The position numbers and the translations under genes are program-made. Source: Gammaproteobacteria bacterium (GTDB lineage: Bacteria > Pseudomonadota > Gammaproteobacteria > SZUA-229). Taken from it: 64,000 bases of DNA. Positions 36,353 to 54,594 of this stretch are shown piece by piece; positions within the stretch are counted from its first letter, which is position 1, and the number at the start of each line of letters is the position of its first letter. The DNA lies in NCBI GenBank assembly GCA_041589175.1, contig JBFHWF010000005.1, forward strand, positions 2,555 to 66,554, read 5' to 3'. The notes under the pieces were generated by a model. The model did not search any database. It was not told the DNA's origin and was given only the letters and a program-made list of their open reading frames with translations.

Positions 36353-36910
36353 TTGCTGAAACGCATTTTATACAGCATATATACGACATTAATAGCATTC
36401 CCACTGCTATTCGTATCGCCTGTGGTCTACGGACAGACGATTGAGGAGGAAAACGAATTATTCACAGCCGCCTTCATTTATAACTTTATCAAGTTCACTG
36501 ACTGGCCAGATTCACACTGGGCCGCCGTCGATGATATTCGTTTTTGCATCTCAGGCAATGACAACCTTGTTGATGATCTACAGCGGCTTAATCACCGGGT
36601 TTTACGAGGACGAACACTCAAGGTTGAAATTCTTACAGCTGATTCTTTCCCGGAAGAGTGCCATCTGCTTTATTTCGCGCTCTCAGAAACACTAAAGTTC
36701 AGATCGACATTACTGAAATTCAATCAATTACCCGTGCTCACAATTTCAAGGATCGAATTCTTTGCCGCACAGGGCGGCATGATTGAAATCGACCGAGGCG
36801 ATGGGCAGACACATCTCACGATTAATCTTGTCCCTGTCAACAATAGTGAGCTCAAAATTAGTTCACGCCTGTTAATCCTGGCAGATATTCTAAACAGGGA
36901 ACAGCAATGA
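36353..36910 (+). CDS. YfiR-like (DUF4154) periplasmic protein
   Basis: 185 aa with a TTG start and GGAGGA 4 nt upstream, a signal peptide, and ...[18 protein letters not shown]... typical of YfiR/DUF4154. The stop overlaps the next ATG (ATGA). Confidence 0.65.
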
Positions 36911-39225
36911 ACTTACATAACTTTTCCCTCAAGCATAAAATCGAAGCCATCATCCTGATCACCTCGGCTATAGTGCTTGCCGTCTGCATTATTCTGTTCA
37001 TGATCATTGAAGTGACTTCTTCTCGCACACAAGCCGAGTCACGACTAACTGCACTAGCTACTGTTCTTGGCGCCAACAGTAGTGCCGCGATTCTATTCAA
37101 TGACCCCCGAACCGCAAACGACATTCTTGCCAGCCTTAGTACACAACAGGAGATAATTTCTGCCACGTTATACACGCGAAACGGCGATGTTTTCGCCAGC
37201 TATCTCAAACAACCACAAACAGCTACTGCAGACACCTATACAGATTTTTTTTCTGGACTACTCGAGAACACCAGCATACAAATACCCATTATTCTCTATG
37301 AAGAGACTATTGGTGACATCCGCATAACCGCTACAATGCAACATGCTCAGACAATTCTTTTCCGGCAGAGCCTCACTGCCATCGCCATATTCGCCATTTC
37401 CATGATGCTTGCGCTTCTTATTTCAAGCCGCCTGCAGAAAATTATTTCTCAGCCTATCCAGCGCCTGCTCAACAGCATGAAACAGGTCGCTGAACGAAAG
37501 GACTTCACTTATCGAGTGCAACGCACTTCGGAGGACGAGTTCGGAAAACTGATTGATGGCTTCAATATCATGCTCGACCGACTCGAACATTACGATGAAG
37601 AACTAACTGATTATCGTAAAGACCTCGAACGCCTTGTGATAGAACGCACACATGAACTTGAGGCCGCCAAACGACAGGCGGAATCTGCAAATCGAGCCAA
37701 AAGCGATTTTATCGCCACTATGAGCCATGAAATTCGCACACCCATGAATGGCGTTATCGGCTTCACAGGCCTGTTGAATAAAACCGAACTCAGTGAACAG
37801 CAAACTGAATTTGTTGAGAATATCACTCGATCGACTGAAAACCTGCTTGCCATTATTAATGACATCCTCGACTTTTCAAAAATTGAGGCCGGTAAACTTG
37901 AACTTAATCCTGCGGCCTTTAGCCTGCATCAGCTCGTGGACGACGTGGTCTCAATTTTCAAGCTTGAAGCCGATAAAAAGAATATTCAGTTGCTGACACA
38001 CTTCGATACACATCTGCCTGATATGCTTTATGCAGATGCAACTCGCATTCAGCAAATACTTGTTAACCTCGTTGGCAATGCTATCAAGTTCACCCATCAG
38101 GGCGAAGTTACTATAGATGTCTCATGTAATATTGTTGATAAGTCACCTCAACCATCAGCTCAATTATCTCTCGCTATTTCAGACACAGGCATCGGAATAC
38201 CCGCAGACAAACAACTACAGCTTTTCACACCATTCCAGCAGGGCGATGCTTCTATTACACGCCGCTACGGTGGCACCGGTCTCGGGCTGGTTATTACCAA
38301 ACGTTTAATTGATCTTATGCAGGGTACAATAGAACTACAAAGTACACCTGATATTGGCACACGCTTCACCATTCATCTCGAATTACCTGTTATACAAGAG
38401 CAGAAACTAATTCAACAGACAGAGCCTCTTACGCTTGAGGCATTACGTGGTGTCTACGCGCTCGTAGTCGATGACAATCCCATTAATCTCAAAGTCGCCA
38501 CAACCTTCCTCAGGGATGAAGGCGTTATAATCGATGATGCGGCTACTGGCCAACAGGCCATTGACCTGGCAAGTCGTAATCACTATGACCTGATACTGAT
38601 GGACCTGGAAATGCCGGACTTAAGCGGCATCGAAACAACTCAGGCTATTCGCAAACTACCTGATCATGCACATACCCCTGTTATTGCCTTAACGGCTCAT
38701 GCATTTAGTAGTACCCGTAATGAAGTCATTGCAAATGGTATGACTGACCTGCTTAGCAAACCTTATAAACCAGATGCACTGTTCTCGATTATCCTTAAAT
38801 GGCTAAGTGATGACAGGCAGATCATCGATTTCAACACTACCGATGCCGGTAAAAAACAATCCGACGAAGTTTATGACAGGGAGCTTGCACTTATCGCCGT
38901 GGGCGGCAAGGTGAAAACCGCAGACAGTTTACTGCATGAGTTTACCGCGAGTCTTCCAGACATACTCGCAACAATCCAGACTGCACAAAATGAAGAAGAC
39001 TACCTGAGCCTGTATAACACAGTACACAAACTGGCTGGCTCTACCTGTGTGATTGGCGCACAGGCTATGCATGCCACTGCTGATTTACTCATGGATTATC
39101 TGAAAGCTGTTCCACGTGATGAGCAGAAAGTTAATCAGGCTTGTGTAAAGCTGCTATACGAAATCAATCGATTCCTGCAGAGAGACGATTCGCCCGGTTA
39201 CGAACAACCCGGCGAATCTACTTGA
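36907..39225 (+). CDS. hybrid sensor histidine kinase (TM-periplasmic CHASE8-like-TM, HAMP, HisKA, HATPase, REC, Hpt)
   Basis: 772 aa. Periplasmic segment ...[31 protein letters not shown]...[15 protein letters not shown]-box [29 protein letters not shown] ...[14 protein letters not shown], and C-terminal Hpt ...[13 protein letters not shown]. Confidence 0.88.
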
Positions 39226-48702: not shown

Positions 48703-49140
48703 TCAGGTCTGCAAATAGAACGTTACCGGGCCGTCATTCACCAGGCTCACCGCCATATCCGCTCCGAACCGCCCCTGCCCAACCTTAGAATGTAACGCCT
48801 GACACTGACTCACAACATAGTCAAACCACTGACTACCCTCCTGCGGCGGCGCCGCAGAGGAAAAACTCGGACGCATTCCCCTGTCTGTATCCGCTGCCAG
48901 GGTAAACTGTGGCACCAGCAGCAGGCCACCATCCACCTGCTGCAATCCGAGATTCATCTTGCCCTGCTCATCCTCAAACACACGGTAATTCAGCAGGCGA
49001 TGCACCATTCTGTCAGCGCGCGCCTGATCATCCCCTTTTTCAACCCCCAACAGCACCATCAGGCCCTGACCGATTTCAGCAATACGCTGCCCCTCAACCA
49101 CCACATCAGCCCGGCTCACTCGCTGTATCAGAGCAATCAC
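48703..49140 (-). CDS. dtd: D-aminoacyl-tRNA deacylase
   Basis: 145 aa containing [18 protein letters not shown]...[19 protein letters not shown]... Confidence 0.93.
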
Positions 49141-50087
49141 CGCAGCCTCTCAGCCAGCTCTCGGGTTGCCCGGATCAAGGCACGACTGATACCCGGCTCA
49201 ACCACTGCATGCCCGGCATCAGCAACGATATCCAGCTGCGCCTCTGGCCAGACACTGGCAAGCTCCCAGGCCTGCTCGACCGGACATATCACATCATATC
49301 GACCGTGGATGATATAGGCAGGAATGTGCCGAATACGCTCAACATCACGTAATAGCTGGTCTGGCTCCAGCCAGGATTGATGTACGAAATAATGGCATTC
49401 GATCCGCGCAATACTCAGCGCCGTATGGCTATCGGCAAAACTGTCCACCAGCGAGGCATCCTGCAGCAGGGTAGCCGTTCGCCCCTCCCATATCGACCAG
49501 GCTTTTGCCGCGCGCAGCTTACGCACCTCATCATCCCCGGTCAGCAGGTCATAGTAAGCCGCTACCATATCGCCACGTCGTGATTCATCTACCGGGTCGA
49601 CAAAATCTTCCCAGTAGTCGGGAAACAGTCGGCTGGTCCCCTCCTGATAAAACCACTGGATATCTCTGTCACGAGCCAGGAATATCCCTCGCAAGATCAG
49701 CCCGCTCACCGATTCTGGATGAGTCTGCGCATACAGCAGGCCAAGGGTTGAGCCCCATGAGCCACCGAATACCACCCACTTTTTGATGTCCAGATGACGG
49801 CGAATCTGTTCAATATCGGCAACCAGATGCTGACTGGTATTATCCTGAAGGCTGGCATGAGGTGTCGATTTACCACTCCCGCGCTGATCAAACAGCACAA
49901 TCCGATAGACATCCGGATCAAAAAACTGGCGGTAAAACGGCGCGCAACCTGCGCCAGGGCCACCATGAAGGTACACAACCGGAATACCTGACGGATTGCC
50001 ACATTCCTCGATATACAGGGTATGCGTATCATCCACATCCAGGTGATGGGTTACATAAGGTTTTATCGGTGGGTACAGATTATCCAT
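49137..50087 (-). CDS. pip: prolyl aminopeptidase (proline iminopeptidase)
   Basis: 316 aa containing ...LHGGPGAG...FDQRGSGKS...GGSWGSTL...; alpha/beta fold. Confidence 0.9.
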
Positions 50088-50134
50088 TTAGGCCTCGCTC
50101 TTTAAACTCCACATGACTTGCTCCATATTGACAA

Positions 50135-50176
50135 CCCCCATTGCCTTGTAGGATTTTTCCTACAAGGCAATGGGGG
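50135..50176. promoter_or_regulatory. 42-bp perfect palindrome containing a GacA/UvrY-box-like core TGTAGG-N6-CCTACA
   Basis: CCCCCATTGCCTTGTAGGA-TTTT-TCCTACAAGGCAATGGGGG. The 18-bp core (50147-50164) has the geometry of TGTAAG-N6-CTTACA. It lies ~77 nt upstream of a CATAAT -10-like hexamer (50232-50237). Confidence 0.55.
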
Positions 50177-50243
50177 ATAATCTGACGTCAAGCACCTGAA
50201 ACAGCTGATATCTATTTTTATCGCACACCCCCATAATTTAACC

Positions 50244-50441
50244 ATGGACACAGGGACATGGCATCACAGGGACACATGGATGTAAGGAAGTAGCTGGAAC
50301 GGACATACATGGAAACGGAGTCCACGGAAGATCAGATCTTTTTACAGGAGTATATGGAAAAACGGATCGAGCTACAACGCCATACTCAATCACCAGGGCA
50401 AGGGATGTCCAGAAACCCGGCAGGGATTGCCGGGTTTTTTT
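50244..50441 (+). ncRNA. Csr/Rsm-family (CsrB/RsmY/RsmZ-like) CsrA-sequestering sRNA, ~200 nt; 5' end approximate
   Basis: 15 GGA motifs between 50246 and 50426 on the plus strand only. There is no credible CDS, the terminal hairpin has GGA in its loop followed by U7, and a GacA-box-like palindrome lies upstream. Confidence 0.7.
50413..50441 (+). terminator. intrinsic terminator of the GGA-rich sRNA
   Basis: AAA-CCCGGCA-GGGAT-TGCCGGG-TTTTTTT. Confidence 0.85.
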
Positions 50442-50509
50442 ATGCCTGAAACAATCTCTCTTACCCCTGCAAAATAACACATCGAACACTTTGCAATAGC
50501 CGACTTCCC

Positions 50510-51286
50510 ATGTATGGTTCGCCCATGAGCGAATTCATCCCACCCCCTAAAACACTGTTACGCCAGGCTGGCCGAGCCCTGATCGACTTTGGCATGATCC
50601 GGGAAGGCGACCGCGTACTACTGGGATTGTCTGGCGGCAAGGACTCACTATCGCTACTGCATATTCTTAATCACTTCCAGCGCCACGCCCCGATACACTT
50701 CGAATTTGGCGCTATGACGGTGGACCCCATGGCCGGTGACTTTGATCCATCGCCCATGATCCCGTATCTGGAATCTCTCGGTGTGGAGTACCACTACCGA
50801 AAAGAACCCATAATGGACATGGCGAAACAGCATATGGGCAAGCCCTCCTACTGCGCATTCTGCTCACGTATAAAGCGCGGCATCATGTATAGCACTGCAC
50901 GAGAGCATAAATATAATGTGATCGCACTGGCACAACATCTCGACGACCTGGCAGAAAGCTTTCTGATGTCTGCATTTCACGGTGGTCAGCTAAAAACCAT
51001 GAAGGCACATTACACCAATGATGATGGCGACCTGCGCATCATTCGTCCACTGGTCTATGTGCGTGAACGACAGACCCGTGACTTTGCATCCAGCGCCGAA
51101 CTCCCCATTATTCCCGACTCATGTCCGGCCTGCTTTTCAATGCCCACACAGCGTCAACATATGAAAGAATTACTCGCTGCCGAAGAACAGGACAACAAGC
51201 TGCTATTCAAGTCACTGCTTTCAACCCTGCGCCCCCTTATGTCGAAAGGTATGCCAGAAACCGAAGCATCCGACGAAAGGAAATAA
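50510..51286 (+). CDS. ttcA: tRNA 2-thiocytidine(32) synthetase
   Basis: 258 aa with PP-loop LGLSGGKDS, Cys pairs CAFCSR and CPAC, and ...DDLAESFLMS... An alternative ATG lies at 50525. Confidence 0.9.
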   Translation: MYGSPMSEFIPPPKTLLRQAGRALIDFGMIREGDRVLLGLSGGKDSLSLLHILNHFQRHAPIHFEFGAMTVDPMAGDFDPSPMIPYLESLGVEYHYRKEPIMDMAKQHMGKPSYCAFCSRIKRGIMYSTAREHKYNVIALAQHLDDLAESFLMSAFHGGQLKTMKAHYTNDDGDLRIIRPLVYVRERQTRDFASSAELPIIPDSCPACFSMPTQRQHMKELLAAEEQDNKLLFKSLLSTLRPLMSKGMPETEASDERK

Positions 51287-52003: not shown

Positions 52004-52405
52004 ATGAGCGAACGTACATTTAGACTGATACTCGGCTTTACCCTCTGGGGACTGCTTGTCTATTCTGCATATTTCCAGACTATGTGGCCAATCTATGCTT
52101 TCTGTATCTACCTTGTTTTTGAGGGCATCACCAATTTACGTTTCACACTACTCGTTAGCCGATTAAAAACAGGAAGCACATTTTCAGAGACAGAACCCAG
52201 TACCTGCACATCTCGCATCATCAACCGCATTGACTCGGAACGCGTATTACGCATCATAATCGCCGCACTTATCATTATTTCATTCAATTTCACACCCGAT
52301 CTTATCTGGTTCTTACCATGGTTTATTTCTGGCATGCTGATCATGGCCGGCATCACCAACATCTGCCCCATGGCAATGTTTCTGAAATGGTCGGGTATGC
52401 GCTAA
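52004..52405 (+). CDS. DUF2892 (YgaP-like) membrane protein
   Basis: 133 aa with 4 hydrophobic helices and a C-terminal ...MLIMAGITNICPMAMFLKW motif resembling DUF2892. Its stop overlaps the next ATG (TAATG). Confidence 0.5.
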   Translation: MSERTFRLILGFTLWGLLVYSAYFQTMWPIYAFCIYLVFEGITNLRFTLLVSRLKTGSTFSETEPSTCTSRIINRIDSERVLRIIIAALIIISFNFTPDLIWFLPWFISGMLIMAGITNICPMAMFLKWSGMR

Positions 52406-54594
52406 TGAAGCCTGTAAAAATCTCAGATTTAACCAGCAACTGGAATGGCAGTATCGCCATTAAGGTTACCGCAATCACAATCTGGATAATTCTGATTCTG
52501 GCTTTTGCGACAACCATCCCATTTGTCTCCAGCTTTGAATCCTACAGCGAACGAAACTACTCATGGAAAAATTTACAGTTGATCAAGCAACTTGAAAAGC
52601 TAGATGAATACGCAAACACTCCACTGATAATACAAAACACGGTACAGCAATTTATTCATGACAACGGTATCCATTATGCCCACATAACGATAAACGGAAA
52701 AGCATATGAAATCGGATCAGCCGCTAAAGACAACTACATACTAACAACTAAATTTGATGGAAAATCGATTCAGGATCTTCATCTTGAATTTCCATCATTA
52801 TCTCGATCCGCAACACTGCTGCGCGTTAAAATTGGCAGCTCAATTGTCGGTTTCTCCGTGCTTTTTAGTTTGTTCCTGTTCTGGCTAAACAAACAGATCA
52901 TTCATCAACCCTTCAATGAAATAATAACACTAATTCAACGCATATCGTCCGGCTCACACGAGCTTCGATTTGACAACCAGCGCAAGGACGAGTTTGGCCT
53001 GGTTGCAAGATTTCTTAATGAGATGCTCGACACATTGCAACAAAATCAGCTGCAACTAAGCCACGCCAACAGTGAGCTTACAGAGGAAATAAAACATCGA
53101 GAAGAAGCCCTTGCGGCTAGCCGACAGAAAAGCACCTTCCTGGCAAACATGAGTCACGAAATACGCACCCCGCTATCATCAATTATGGGGTATACAGAAC
53201 GCCTACGTTACAGCAATATAAAATCCGAACCGGAAAAACAGCAGATGCTGGATATTGTGTTGCAAAATGGCAATCATCTGATGCATCTAATCAATGATAT
53301 TCTTGATCTGTCGAAAATAGAAGCCAACAAGCTTGTCATCCATCGTCAGGATATATCTATCATCAAAATCCTTGAACACACCCGACGACTACTCAGTGAA
53401 CGCGCAATCGAGAAAGGCATACAACTTAACATTAACTACCAGCTGCCTGTTCCTGAATTAATTCACAATGATCCCACACGGATAAAACAGATTATTCTGA
53501 ATCTTGCCAGCAATGCCATCCGCTTTACAGACGAAGGAAAAGTTGACATTAATGTTTACTATGACAACAAAGATGAATTAAAAGTGGAAGTGACTGACAC
53601 TGGCATTGGCATGACGCAAAAGCAACAGAACAATCTGTTCCAGCCCTTTTCTCAGGCTGATGACTCAATTGAGGAACGCTATGGTGGCACCGGGCTTGGG
53701 CTTACAATCTCACGGCGACTCGCTGAACTAATGGATGGCAATATTGAAGTTGAAAGCATCAGCGGCATAGGCAGCAGATTTACCTTTCGCTTCAGAACTG
53801 GAATAGACCCCGATAAAATCACACTAATAGAGTCACTCAATCCACAGGACTTCGATATAAGAGACTATGACAAGCCTGTCGACAATCTCCGGTTAAATGG
53901 CAAAATCCTGTTAGTTGAAGACACTCCTGAAATCCAGCAACTTGTAAAGGCTTACCTGGAAGACTACGGAATTGAAATTGAAACTGCAGATAATGGCACA
54001 AGCGGCGTCGAAAAAGCACTCAGGAATGATTATGACCTTGTGCTTATGGATATACAGATGCCTGTTATGAACGGCATAGAGGCCATGAAAGAACTCAAGC
54101 TCAGCAGCTATGCTAAACCTGTTATTGCCTTAACTGCGGATGCAATCCCCGAACACGAAGACCAGTTTAGACAGGTCGGCTTCGCTCACACGCTGACAAA
54201 ACCCATCATAATAAATAAACTGATCTACACCATTCAAAAATATTTACCCCATGAGCCATCAAAAGCTATTACACAGAAAGACACTACAGAGCGGCACCGT
54301 CAACCAGCAACAGTCACTGATAGCAATGCAGACAAGACGGACATACTAAGAGACCTGAAAGAAAAATACCTGATACAGTTACCTATTTATCTAAACGAGC
54401 TTAGACAATCAATGGAAAGCGGAAACTATATGCAGGCACATGCAGTACTACATCAGCTGAAAGGCATTAGTGGCAGCCTTGGCTATCAGGACCTCACAGA
54501 CATCGCCAGCGAAACCAGCGAGTTACTACGACACGGAGAAAAAGAAAAGGCCGAAAAGAAAATCGATCTTATCGAAAGCTACTTCATCCATTAA
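52405..54594 (+). CDS. hybrid sensor histidine kinase (TM-periplasmic-TM, HAMP, HisKA, HATPase, REC, Hpt)
   Basis: Taken from ATG 52405 (the ORF-track start at 52318 lies inside the previous gene). H-box [29 protein letters not shown] ...DLVLMDIQMPVMNG, and Hpt ...LHQLKGISGSLG. Confidence 0.88.
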   Translation: MKPVKISDLTSNWNGSIAIKVTAITIWIILILAFATTIPFVSSFESYSERNYSWKNLQLIKQLEKLDEYANTPLIIQNTVQQFIHDNGIHYAHITINGKAYEIGSAAKDNYILTTKFDGKSIQDLHLEFPSLSRSATLLRVKIGSSIVGFSVLFSLFLFWLNKQIIHQPFNEIITLIQRISSGSHELRFDNQRKDEFGLVARFLNEMLDTLQQNQLQLSHANSELTEEIKHREEALAASRQKSTFLANMSHEIRTPLSSIMGYTERLRYSNIKSEPEKQQMLDIVLQNGNHLMHLINDILDLSKIEANKLVIHRQDISIIKILEHTRRLLSERAIEKGIQLNINYQLPVPELIHNDPTRIKQIILNLASNAIRFTDEGKVDINVYYDNKDELKVEVTDTGIGMTQKQQNNLFQPFSQADDSIEERYGGTGLGLTISRRLAELMDGNIEVESISGIGSRFTFRFRTGIDPDKITLIESLNPQDFDIRDYDKPVDNLRLNGKILLVEDTPEIQQLVKAYLEDYGIEIETADNGTSGVEKALRNDYDLVLMDIQMPVMNGIEAMKELKLSSYAKPVIALTADAIPEHEDQFRQVGFAHTLTKPIIINKLIYTIQKYLPHEPSKAITQKDTTERHRQPATVTDSNADKTDILRDLKEKYLIQLPIYLNELRQSMESGNYMQAHAVLHQLKGISGSLGYQDLTDIASETSELLRHGEKEKAEKKIDLIESYFIH

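Follow-up and report, generated by a model that had tools for sequence, protein, structure and literature searches.

The region 50244-50441 of the window, by which we mean the whole 64-kb stretch of DNA that was analysed, can be regarded with a probability of about 0.78 as an independent non-coding RNA gene of approximately 198 nt that specifies a putative sponge for a protein of the CsrA/RsmA family and is a counterpart of CsrB/CsrC and RsmX/Y/Z. The region displays gene-like conservation, a defined promoter architecture, a sponge-like content and context of GGA motifs and a covarying RNA structure, and coding potential is absent. The initial annotation had proposed a Csr/Rsm sponge of about 200 nt at this place, a view that is supported by a GGA density and context resembling those of CsrB and CsrC, by unpaired GGAs, by a promoter with fixed spacing and by a covarying terminator. 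In Gammaproteobacteria, carbon metabolism, motility, biofilm formation and host interaction are under the control of Csr/Rsm sponges as master switches; these RNAs evolve fast and have to be discovered lineage by lineage. The locus described here represents a new sequence family and not a new mechanism or principle, and an RNA of this kind is expected by specialists.

Genomic context, coding potential and conservation

The predicted RNA gene is located in the 422-nt gap between pip and ttcA (50088-50509).

49137-50087, minus strand: pip, prolyl aminopeptidase (TIGR01249, 430 bits)
50244-50441, plus strand: predicted small RNA of about 198 nt with 15 GGA motifs, 14 of them as A(N)GGA or AGGA
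50510-51286, plus strand: ttcA, best NCBIfam match the TtcA equivalog NF007972 with 218.6 bits (below the 272-bit cutoff), Pfam PP-loop domain ATP_bind_3

The 5' end of the RNA was placed at position 50244 by means of an invariant CA located 6-7 nt past the -10 box, and it is a deduced end. The host of the RNA is an uncultured gammaproteobacterial lineage of sediments, and the genomes closest to the lineage of the window are MAGs with TtcA identities of up to 90%. The only public contig encoding an identical TtcA is L001 (a Logan contig of SRR29257444), which covers the RNA, ttcA and a CDGSH gene; its position 1 corresponds to window position 50251 and lies 7 nt 3' of the predicted transcription start, which may be a coincidence. 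The window as a whole is strand-asymmetric, with 20.4% G and 27.0% C on the plus strand (GC skew about -0.14), and the majority of its long ORFs are located on the minus strand.

According to the initial annotation the gap contains no credible CDS, and this held with respect to both the size of the gap and the lack of a conserved ORF. No ORF over the element is conserved on either strand across the homologues. It is extremely unlikely that the element encodes a small protein: the window does contain a 46-aa ORF on the plus strand (50309-50449) and an 83-aa ORF on the minus strand (50238-50489), but the frame of the latter, which had been singled out initially as the coding alternative, is not conserved in relatives, the longest open frame switches strand and frame among species and comprises only 32-39 codons in L018 and L022, the alignments contain many indels of 1-2 nt, and conservation tracks the GGA motifs and the helices rather than codons.

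A scan of 80 ttcA loci for GGA-rich stretches revealed a plus-strand peak of 12-17 GGA motifs just 5' of ttcA in 12 other species-level genomes (L003-L006, L008-L011, L018, L022, L028 and L031), which together with the window constitute the set of 13 genomes referred to below. The gene order dtd-pip-RNA-ttcA is kept in these 13 species-level genome sequences; the RNA element is absent from more distant relatives, in which the pip-ttcA gap amounts to 70-125 nt. An alignment of the 13 genomes contains a series of conserved blocks, namely an upstream palindromic box, a half-site about 20 nt downstream of it, a CTGAT(A) motif, the -10 box, the GGA motifs, an AAUCACC block and the terminator, with little conservation in between. 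Judged by these sequence comparisons, the region 50244-50441 is a real and conserved gene.

Additionally, a metagenome scan with the promoter pattern yielded 106 contigs, 58 of which carry a homologue of the RNA (nhmmer scores of 54-169 bits) with 8-15 GGA motifs in a fixed span of 210 nt and at least 10 in all but one. The RNA adjoins dtd, pip or ttcA in 56 of the 58 contigs, and clear homologues outside the ttcA neighbourhood are present in L157, where the gene is located after dnaG, and in L182. Two contigs harbour the long RNA in two tandem copies each (L108, 908-1433; L184, 5548-6116), an arrangement that resembles the gene amplification described for rsmX of Pseudomonas. A GGA-rich candidate with the same promoter module was noticed near T6SS sheath genes in L175, where it is cut by the contig end and gave no nhmmer match. 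Moreover, a GC-rich genome whose TtcA is 67% identical contains a candidate RNA with 11 GGA motifs between dtd and ttcA (L036, c.2560-2960), along with CCTACA half-sites, a CACAAT -10 box and a terminator loop with a GGA; this candidate is a probable distant relative of the RNA family. Minus-strand GGA-rich stretches about 250 nt 5' of ttcA (L038, L051, L054 and others) were considered as inverted homologues and turned out to be protein-coding sequence, and the GGA-rich start of L050 is a tandem repeat (GGACAGA)n.

In relatives of the window lineage, a second GGA-hairpin RNA gene of about 110-120 nt was observed between the long RNA and ttcA.

L006, c.2725-2920: short RNA
L008, c.2750-2950: short RNA
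L010, c.2745-2945: short RNA
L018, c.2655-2860: short RNA
L022, c.2690-2890: short RNA
L031, c.2690-2890: short RNA
L028, c.1270-1460: short RNA
L034, 245-440: short RNA, present without the long RNA

The promoter of the short RNA includes the right half of the box only, which reads CTTACA in L018, L022 and L031, followed by a CTGA motif and a -10 box as in the long RNA. The short RNA contains 4-5 GGA motifs versus 15 in the long RNA, displayed in hairpins such as GAUAC-AGGAU-GUAUC and in the loop of its terminator. It is absent from the window, where the terminator of the long RNA is separated from ttcA by 68 nt. This short distance, the orientation parallel to ttcA, the conserved linkage with ttcA and the fact that a promoter scan did not identify a separate ttcA promoter would also be consistent with a cis-acting leader or attenuator of ttcA in place of a free-standing RNA. 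Such a function is nevertheless very improbable, since the strong U7 terminator is conserved and covarying, 300-560 nt including the short RNA gene with its own promoter separate the long RNA from ttcA in seven relatives, the homologues in L157 and L182 are located away from ttcA, and some contigs contain two tandem copies. These data favour a free-standing RNA gene.

GGA motifs, RNA structure and family assignment

The GGA motifs of the RNA start at plus-strand positions 50246, 50254, 50270, 50278, 50286, 50296, 50301, 50311, 50317, 50326, 50347, 50356, 50364, 50403 and 50424, in agreement with the 15 motifs counted initially within 50246-50426; the spacing of 5-38 nt given at that time has to be corrected at its upper bound, as the largest start-to-start distance is 39 nt. 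The minus strand of the same interval contains two GGA motifs. On the plus strand of the window, the background amounts to a mean of 1.68 GGA (sd 1.44) per 198 nt, all 198-nt windows with at least 10 GGA overlap the RNA locus and no other place exceeds nine, which is also the maximum per 198 nt anywhere on the minus strand. In 100,000 mononucleotide shuffles of the region, the count never rose above 14 GGA. The motif context is likewise biased: 14 of the 15 GGAs of the window RNA and 168 of 180 (93%) over the 13 genomes occur as A(N)GGA or AGGA, compared with a background of 46% among the other 527 GGAs of the window, and the base at position -2 of the GGA is an A in 72%.

Single-sequence folding of the window RNA resulted in z = -3.3, and in every homologue the mean probability of being unpaired was higher for the GGA motifs (0.57-0.75) than for the rest of the RNA (0.36-0.48). 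A consensus fold was derived with RIBOSUM scoring from the 10 closest sequences and was tested on 13 and then on 63 distinct sequences. With the 63 sequences, 84.9% of the cells were able to pair, versus 36-42% when the partners were slid by 1-3 columns; compensatory changes were detected at 18 pairs, and the covariation score was reached by none of 500 column shuffles. The compensatory changes back at least four helices, and most GGAs are located outside of them. The following plus-strand elements were deduced, with pairing percentages referring to cells.

50258-50262 (AUGGC) with 50379-50383 (GCCAU), plus strand: outer long-range helix (helix 3), 87% paired, two compensatory pairs
50290-50295 (GUAGCU) with 50370-50375 (AGCUAC), plus strand: inner long-range helix (helix 7), 87% paired, three compensatory pairs
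50341-50354, plus strand: small hairpin UUUAC-AGGA-GUAUA (helix 8; stem 50341-45 with 50350-54), AGGA in the loop, 75% paired, four of five pairs compensatory
50396-50410, plus strand: penultimate hairpin GGGC-AAGGGAU-GUCC (helix 9; stem 50396-99 with 50407-10), GGA in the 7-nt loop, 89% paired, three of four pairs compensatory
50411-50441, plus strand: intrinsic terminator (helix 10; stem 50411-50422 with 50428-50438), 91.5% paired, five compensatory pairs
50388-50394, plus strand: AAUCACC block, invariant in 13 genomes, conservation above 90% in 63 sequences

The inner long-range helix, for which the change to GUAACU/AGUUAC in L010 provides an example of compensation, encloses about 75 nt with 8-9 GGAs. 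The terminator comprises the core CCCGGCA/UGCCGGG, the loop GGGAU (50423-50427) with the last GGA and a T7 run at 50435-50441. The GC-rich hairpin with a GGA in its 5-nt loop and a following U7, as described in the initial annotation, was thereby recovered at 50411-50441, and the terminator hairpin with its loop GGA is kept in the homologues. A simple terminator scan returned no site in spite of this; the scan extends stems greedily and probably takes in some of the U-run, and both the sequence and the folds clearly show the hairpin. Short closing contacts connect the first two GGAs with the ACUC..CACC region, and these two GGAs are predicted to be partly paired. A further helix of the consensus fold (50269-70 with 50281-82) was dropped, as 34% of its cells paired in the test on 63 sequences. 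RNAalifold with default settings reported the terminator only, and the long-range helices were seen with RIBOSUM scoring. Folding had been suggested initially as a check of the sponge reading, and the GGAs proved to be preferentially unpaired, with three of them in loops of covarying hairpins. In this model, the RNA would present three GGAs in loops together with an extended, mostly single-stranded GGA-rich region.

With respect to known RNA families, a search with Rfam 15 at gathering thresholds gave no match in the window or in 20 homologous loci. The models concerned are those of clan CL00106 (CsrB RF00018, CsrC RF00084, RsmY RF00195 and RsmZ/PrrB RF00166) and RsmX RF02144. Under permissive settings RsmY was the only Csr/Rsm model that aligned, with 12.5 bits (E about 1) in the window and 17 bits in L008, whereas its gathering score is 57. 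Sub-threshold matches to mir-651, rdlD (at the palindrome) and rnk (at the terminator) were classified as generic hairpin matches. As anticipated initially, standard annotation misses the RNA, and since no Rfam model reaches its threshold, the element constitutes a sequence family that is new and lies outside the curated Csr/Rsm families, while its functional kind is known.

The AAUCACC block deserves separate consideration, as its conservation exceeds that of most GGAs. In the consensus fold, the CC of the block is paired with the GG of the first GGA (helix 1). The block is displayed as a hairpin loop in the L018 group, and the sequence AUCACC is common to the block and the 3' tail of 16S rRNA. 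The conservation of the block, the lack of homology to known Csr/Rsm families and the failure to find csrA within the 64-kb window would also suit a conserved small RNA that is not a CsrA sponge and that either titrates another RNA-binding protein with a purine motif or base-pairs through AAUCACC, the GGAs being secondary. We consider this unlikely, because the RNA agrees with CsrB and CsrC in A(N)GGA context, GGA density and base composition, 12-17 A(N)GGA motifs per approximately 200 nt are not accounted for by another known protein family, and pairing with the 5' end of the RNA explains AAUCACC in part. Furthermore, the non-syntenic homologues in L157 and L182 have lost AAUCACC and yet keep 13-15 GGAs. 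As to the binding protein, a tblastn search of the window and of about 1.3 Mb of retrieved loci did not detect csrA; homologues of CsrA and of BarA-UvrY co-occur in most Gammaproteobacteria (PMC1488887), so that their presence in the host genome is likely. A sponge for CsrA is the reading that we retain.

Promoter architecture and candidate regulators

The region upstream of the RNA contains the following elements.

50135-50176, unstranded: perfect inverted repeat with 19-bp arms and a 4-nt centre, DNA hairpin of -24.3 kcal/mol, z = -9.7
50147-50164, unstranded: 18-bp core box TGTAGGATTTTTCCTACA of the GacA/UvrY type, TGTAGG-N6-CCTACA, inside the inverted repeat
50182-50187, plus strand: position of a second half-site about 18-20 nt past the palindrome, CTGACG here and CTTACA/CCTACA in most relatives
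50205-50210, plus strand: conserved CTGATA motif, 21 nt 5' of the -10 box
50232-50237, plus strand: -10 hexamer CATAAT, identical in 12 of the 13 genomes and CATACT in L006

Both the CATAAT hexamer and the TGTAGG-N6-CCTACA palindrome about 77 nt upstream of it had been recognized in the initial annotation; the centre of the core box lies 76.5 nt 5' of the -10 box, and the repeat extends to arms of 19 bp. The distance from the start of the core box to the -10 hexamer is 84 or 85 nt in all 13 genomes, and the palindrome, the -10 box and the terminator keep a fixed spacing in the 58 metagenome contigs as well. No other perfect box occurs in the 64 kb. The core box matches the published consensus TGTAAG-N6-CTTACA (PMC3171408) at 10 of 12 positions, and the orthologous core sites in L022 and L031 read TGTAAG. 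A consensus promoter scan of the locus gave no plus-strand promoter, and no -35-like hexamer is present at 16-18 nt from the -10 box, as expected of an activator-dependent promoter. The CTGATA motif, at 21 nt, is too distant to serve as a sigma-70 -35 element and is therefore probably the site of another factor.

The palindrome is longer than the 18-bp core in four of the 13 species, with 12, 10, 5 and 5 extra perfect base pairs per arm.

Window, 50135-50176: extended palindrome
L008, c.2413-2450: extended palindrome
L004, c.382-409: extended palindrome
L010, c.2412-2439: extended palindrome

The flanking sequences differ among the species, which indicates that the palindromy itself is maintained or regenerated. 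A function as a cruciform or hairpin, or an extension by template switching, is possible; no U-run follows the extended palindrome on either strand.

The protein binding to the box in the window lineage is very probably a GacA-like regulator of the NarL family. A tblastn search through the window and the loci retrieved from the lineage detected no full-length uvrY/gacA gene, and full-length UvrY-like genes were found only on contigs from outside the lineage. Two unorthodox sensor kinases are encoded in the window.

36907-39225: kinase with HAMP-HisKA-HATPase-REC-Hpt architecture and a CHASE8 domain, YfiR-like neighbour, 521 bits with the BarA model (cutoff 890)
52318-54594: kinase with HAMP-HisKA-HATPase-REC-Hpt architecture, 1.9 kb downstream of the RNA, 362 bits with the BarA model (cutoff 890)

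Both kinases have the architecture of BarA, which is also their best NCBIfam match, and either could be the counterpart of GacS; as both score under the cutoff of the BarA equivalog, neither could be called GacS.

Among the 48 pattern contigs without a homologue of the small RNA, 13 carry a full-length UvrY-like gene with 32-38% identity to UvrY of Escherichia coli (L082, L089, L121, L150, L160, L180, L183, L186, L152, L158, L139, L092 and L097). The gene is located just 5' of the box and in the same orientation in all but one, the exception being the divergent gene of L097. These regulators derive from Methylobacter, Methylovulum and other Methylococcales, and their best NCBIfam match is UvrY/SirA/GacA with 173-187 bits, below the 280-bit cutoff. 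Their partner kinase is a cytoplasmic protein with the architecture REC-PAS-PAS-HisKA_3-HATPase and is not of the BarA/GacS type. The Methylococcales promoters share the module of the RNA promoter, consisting of the box, a half-site at +37-46, CTGAT at +62-69 and CATAAT at +84/85. Where examined, the genes located 3' of the module encode PAS-GGDEF-EAL proteins (L190-L194), hemerythrin and PAS proteins (L082) or large ORFs (L121, L183). On sequence grounds, the kinase/regulator operon and the module look like an undescribed regulon of a GacA paralogue. The contigs of the UvrY-like regulators P0103 and P0110 come from other samples and show no tie to the genomes with the small RNA. In L152, L169 and L186, a receiver-domain/response-regulator gene begins about 300 nt past the box, and the leader that precedes it has eight GGAs within the first 210 nt 3' of the promoter; this leader is possibly a CsrA-controlled 5' UTR rather than a free sponge.

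The initial annotation had assumed activation by GacA. A conserved box of the GacA/UvrY type is in accordance with this assumption, but GacA specifically is weakened as a candidate by the occurrence of the same module beside a GacA-like regulator that scores below the threshold, and the activator may be a relative of GacA rather than GacA itself. Extending this view, the long and short RNAs could be the output of a GacA-like, non-orthodox pathway, in which the sediment lineage has connected a deep-branching GacA paralogue with a broad regulon to a CsrA sponge; we regard this idea as tentative and rather doubtful. If true, it would link two-component signalling to the Csr system by a second route that is independent of the first, the same module driving PAS-GGDEF-EAL, hemerythrin and chemotaxis-type genes in Methylococcales.

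Proposed function and comparison with known Csr/Rsm RNAs

From the features described above we infer that the region is transcribed, that the transcript binds CsrA and which type of protein activates it. In the proposed mechanism, a GacA-like response regulator of the NarL type would bind the TGTAGG-N6-CCTACA palindrome about 88 nt 5' of the start and activate the promoter, which contains the CATAAT -10 box and is devoid of a -35 element, and transcription would stop at the GC-rich terminator. Two long-range helices would close the RNA around a largely single-stranded centre in which 8-9 A(N)GGA motifs are spread over about 75 nt, three more GGAs would be shown in hairpin loops, and each RNA could hold several CsrA dimers. 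Switching on the kinase pathway would then relieve the repression or activation of mRNA targets by CsrA.

The family comprises at least 63 distinct sequences, and its structure is supported and its promoter defined; the alignment can be used to build a covariance model and offers an annotation handle for the family. The RNA family may moreover serve as a metatranscriptome marker of upstream two-component activity, in a host group that is uncultured, sediment-dwelling and abundant in several metagenome series. The long and short sponge genes, with 15 versus 4-5 GGAs and with full-box versus half-box promoters, offer a natural comparison.

Five criteria have been formulated that define CsrA-regulating small RNAs (Kulkarni et al. 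2006, PMC1488887). The window RNA shows all five features: it is intergenic, being located in the pip-ttcA gap, has a density of AGGA/ARGGA motifs above background, ends in a rho-independent terminator composed of a stem and U7, shows GGAs repeatedly in loops or free regions of its predicted structure and is preceded by a conserved 18-bp site that is of the UvrY/GacA type by sequence.

When measured with the same script, CsrB of E. coli (369 nt) contains 22 GGAs, 19 of them in context, and CsrC (246 nt) contains 14, with 13 in context. The window RNA resembles both in its intergenic position, its intrinsic terminator, its many A(N)GGA motifs in loops or single strands and its upstream 18-bp inverted repeat, and the base composition of all three RNAs falls within A 0.30-0.33, C 0.17-0.20, G 0.29-0.33 and U 0.18-0.19. 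The GGA density is one per 13 nt in the window RNA and one per 17-18 nt in CsrB and CsrC. In contrast, there is no detectable sequence homology, the window RNA is shorter, and its fold has a GGA-rich centre enclosed by long-range helices, whereas CsrB and CsrC form a string of hairpins. The loop of its terminator itself holds a GGA, unlike those of CsrB and CsrC, and its box is centred near -88, whereas the csrB box starts at -191.

The likeness to RsmX/Y/Z of Pseudomonas concerns the promoter type with a GacA box (TGTAAG-N6-CTTACA) and the GGAs in hairpin loops, and a parallel can also be drawn with the half-box short RNA that occurs in tandem in the relatives. RsmX, RsmY and RsmZ of P. brassicacearum contain 6, 7 and 10 GGAs, respectively (PMC7911923); the window RNA is longer and has about twice as many, and the halves of its box mostly read TGTAGG/CCTACA. 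CsrB1 and CsrB2 of Shewanella and Vibrio were predicted by CSRNA_FIND (PMC1488887; PMC3171408), and the window RNA was recognized by the same logic of AGGA/ARGGA density, terminator and UvrY box. These RNAs comprise about 420 nt and are homologous to CsrB, whereas the window RNA belongs to an unrelated sequence family.
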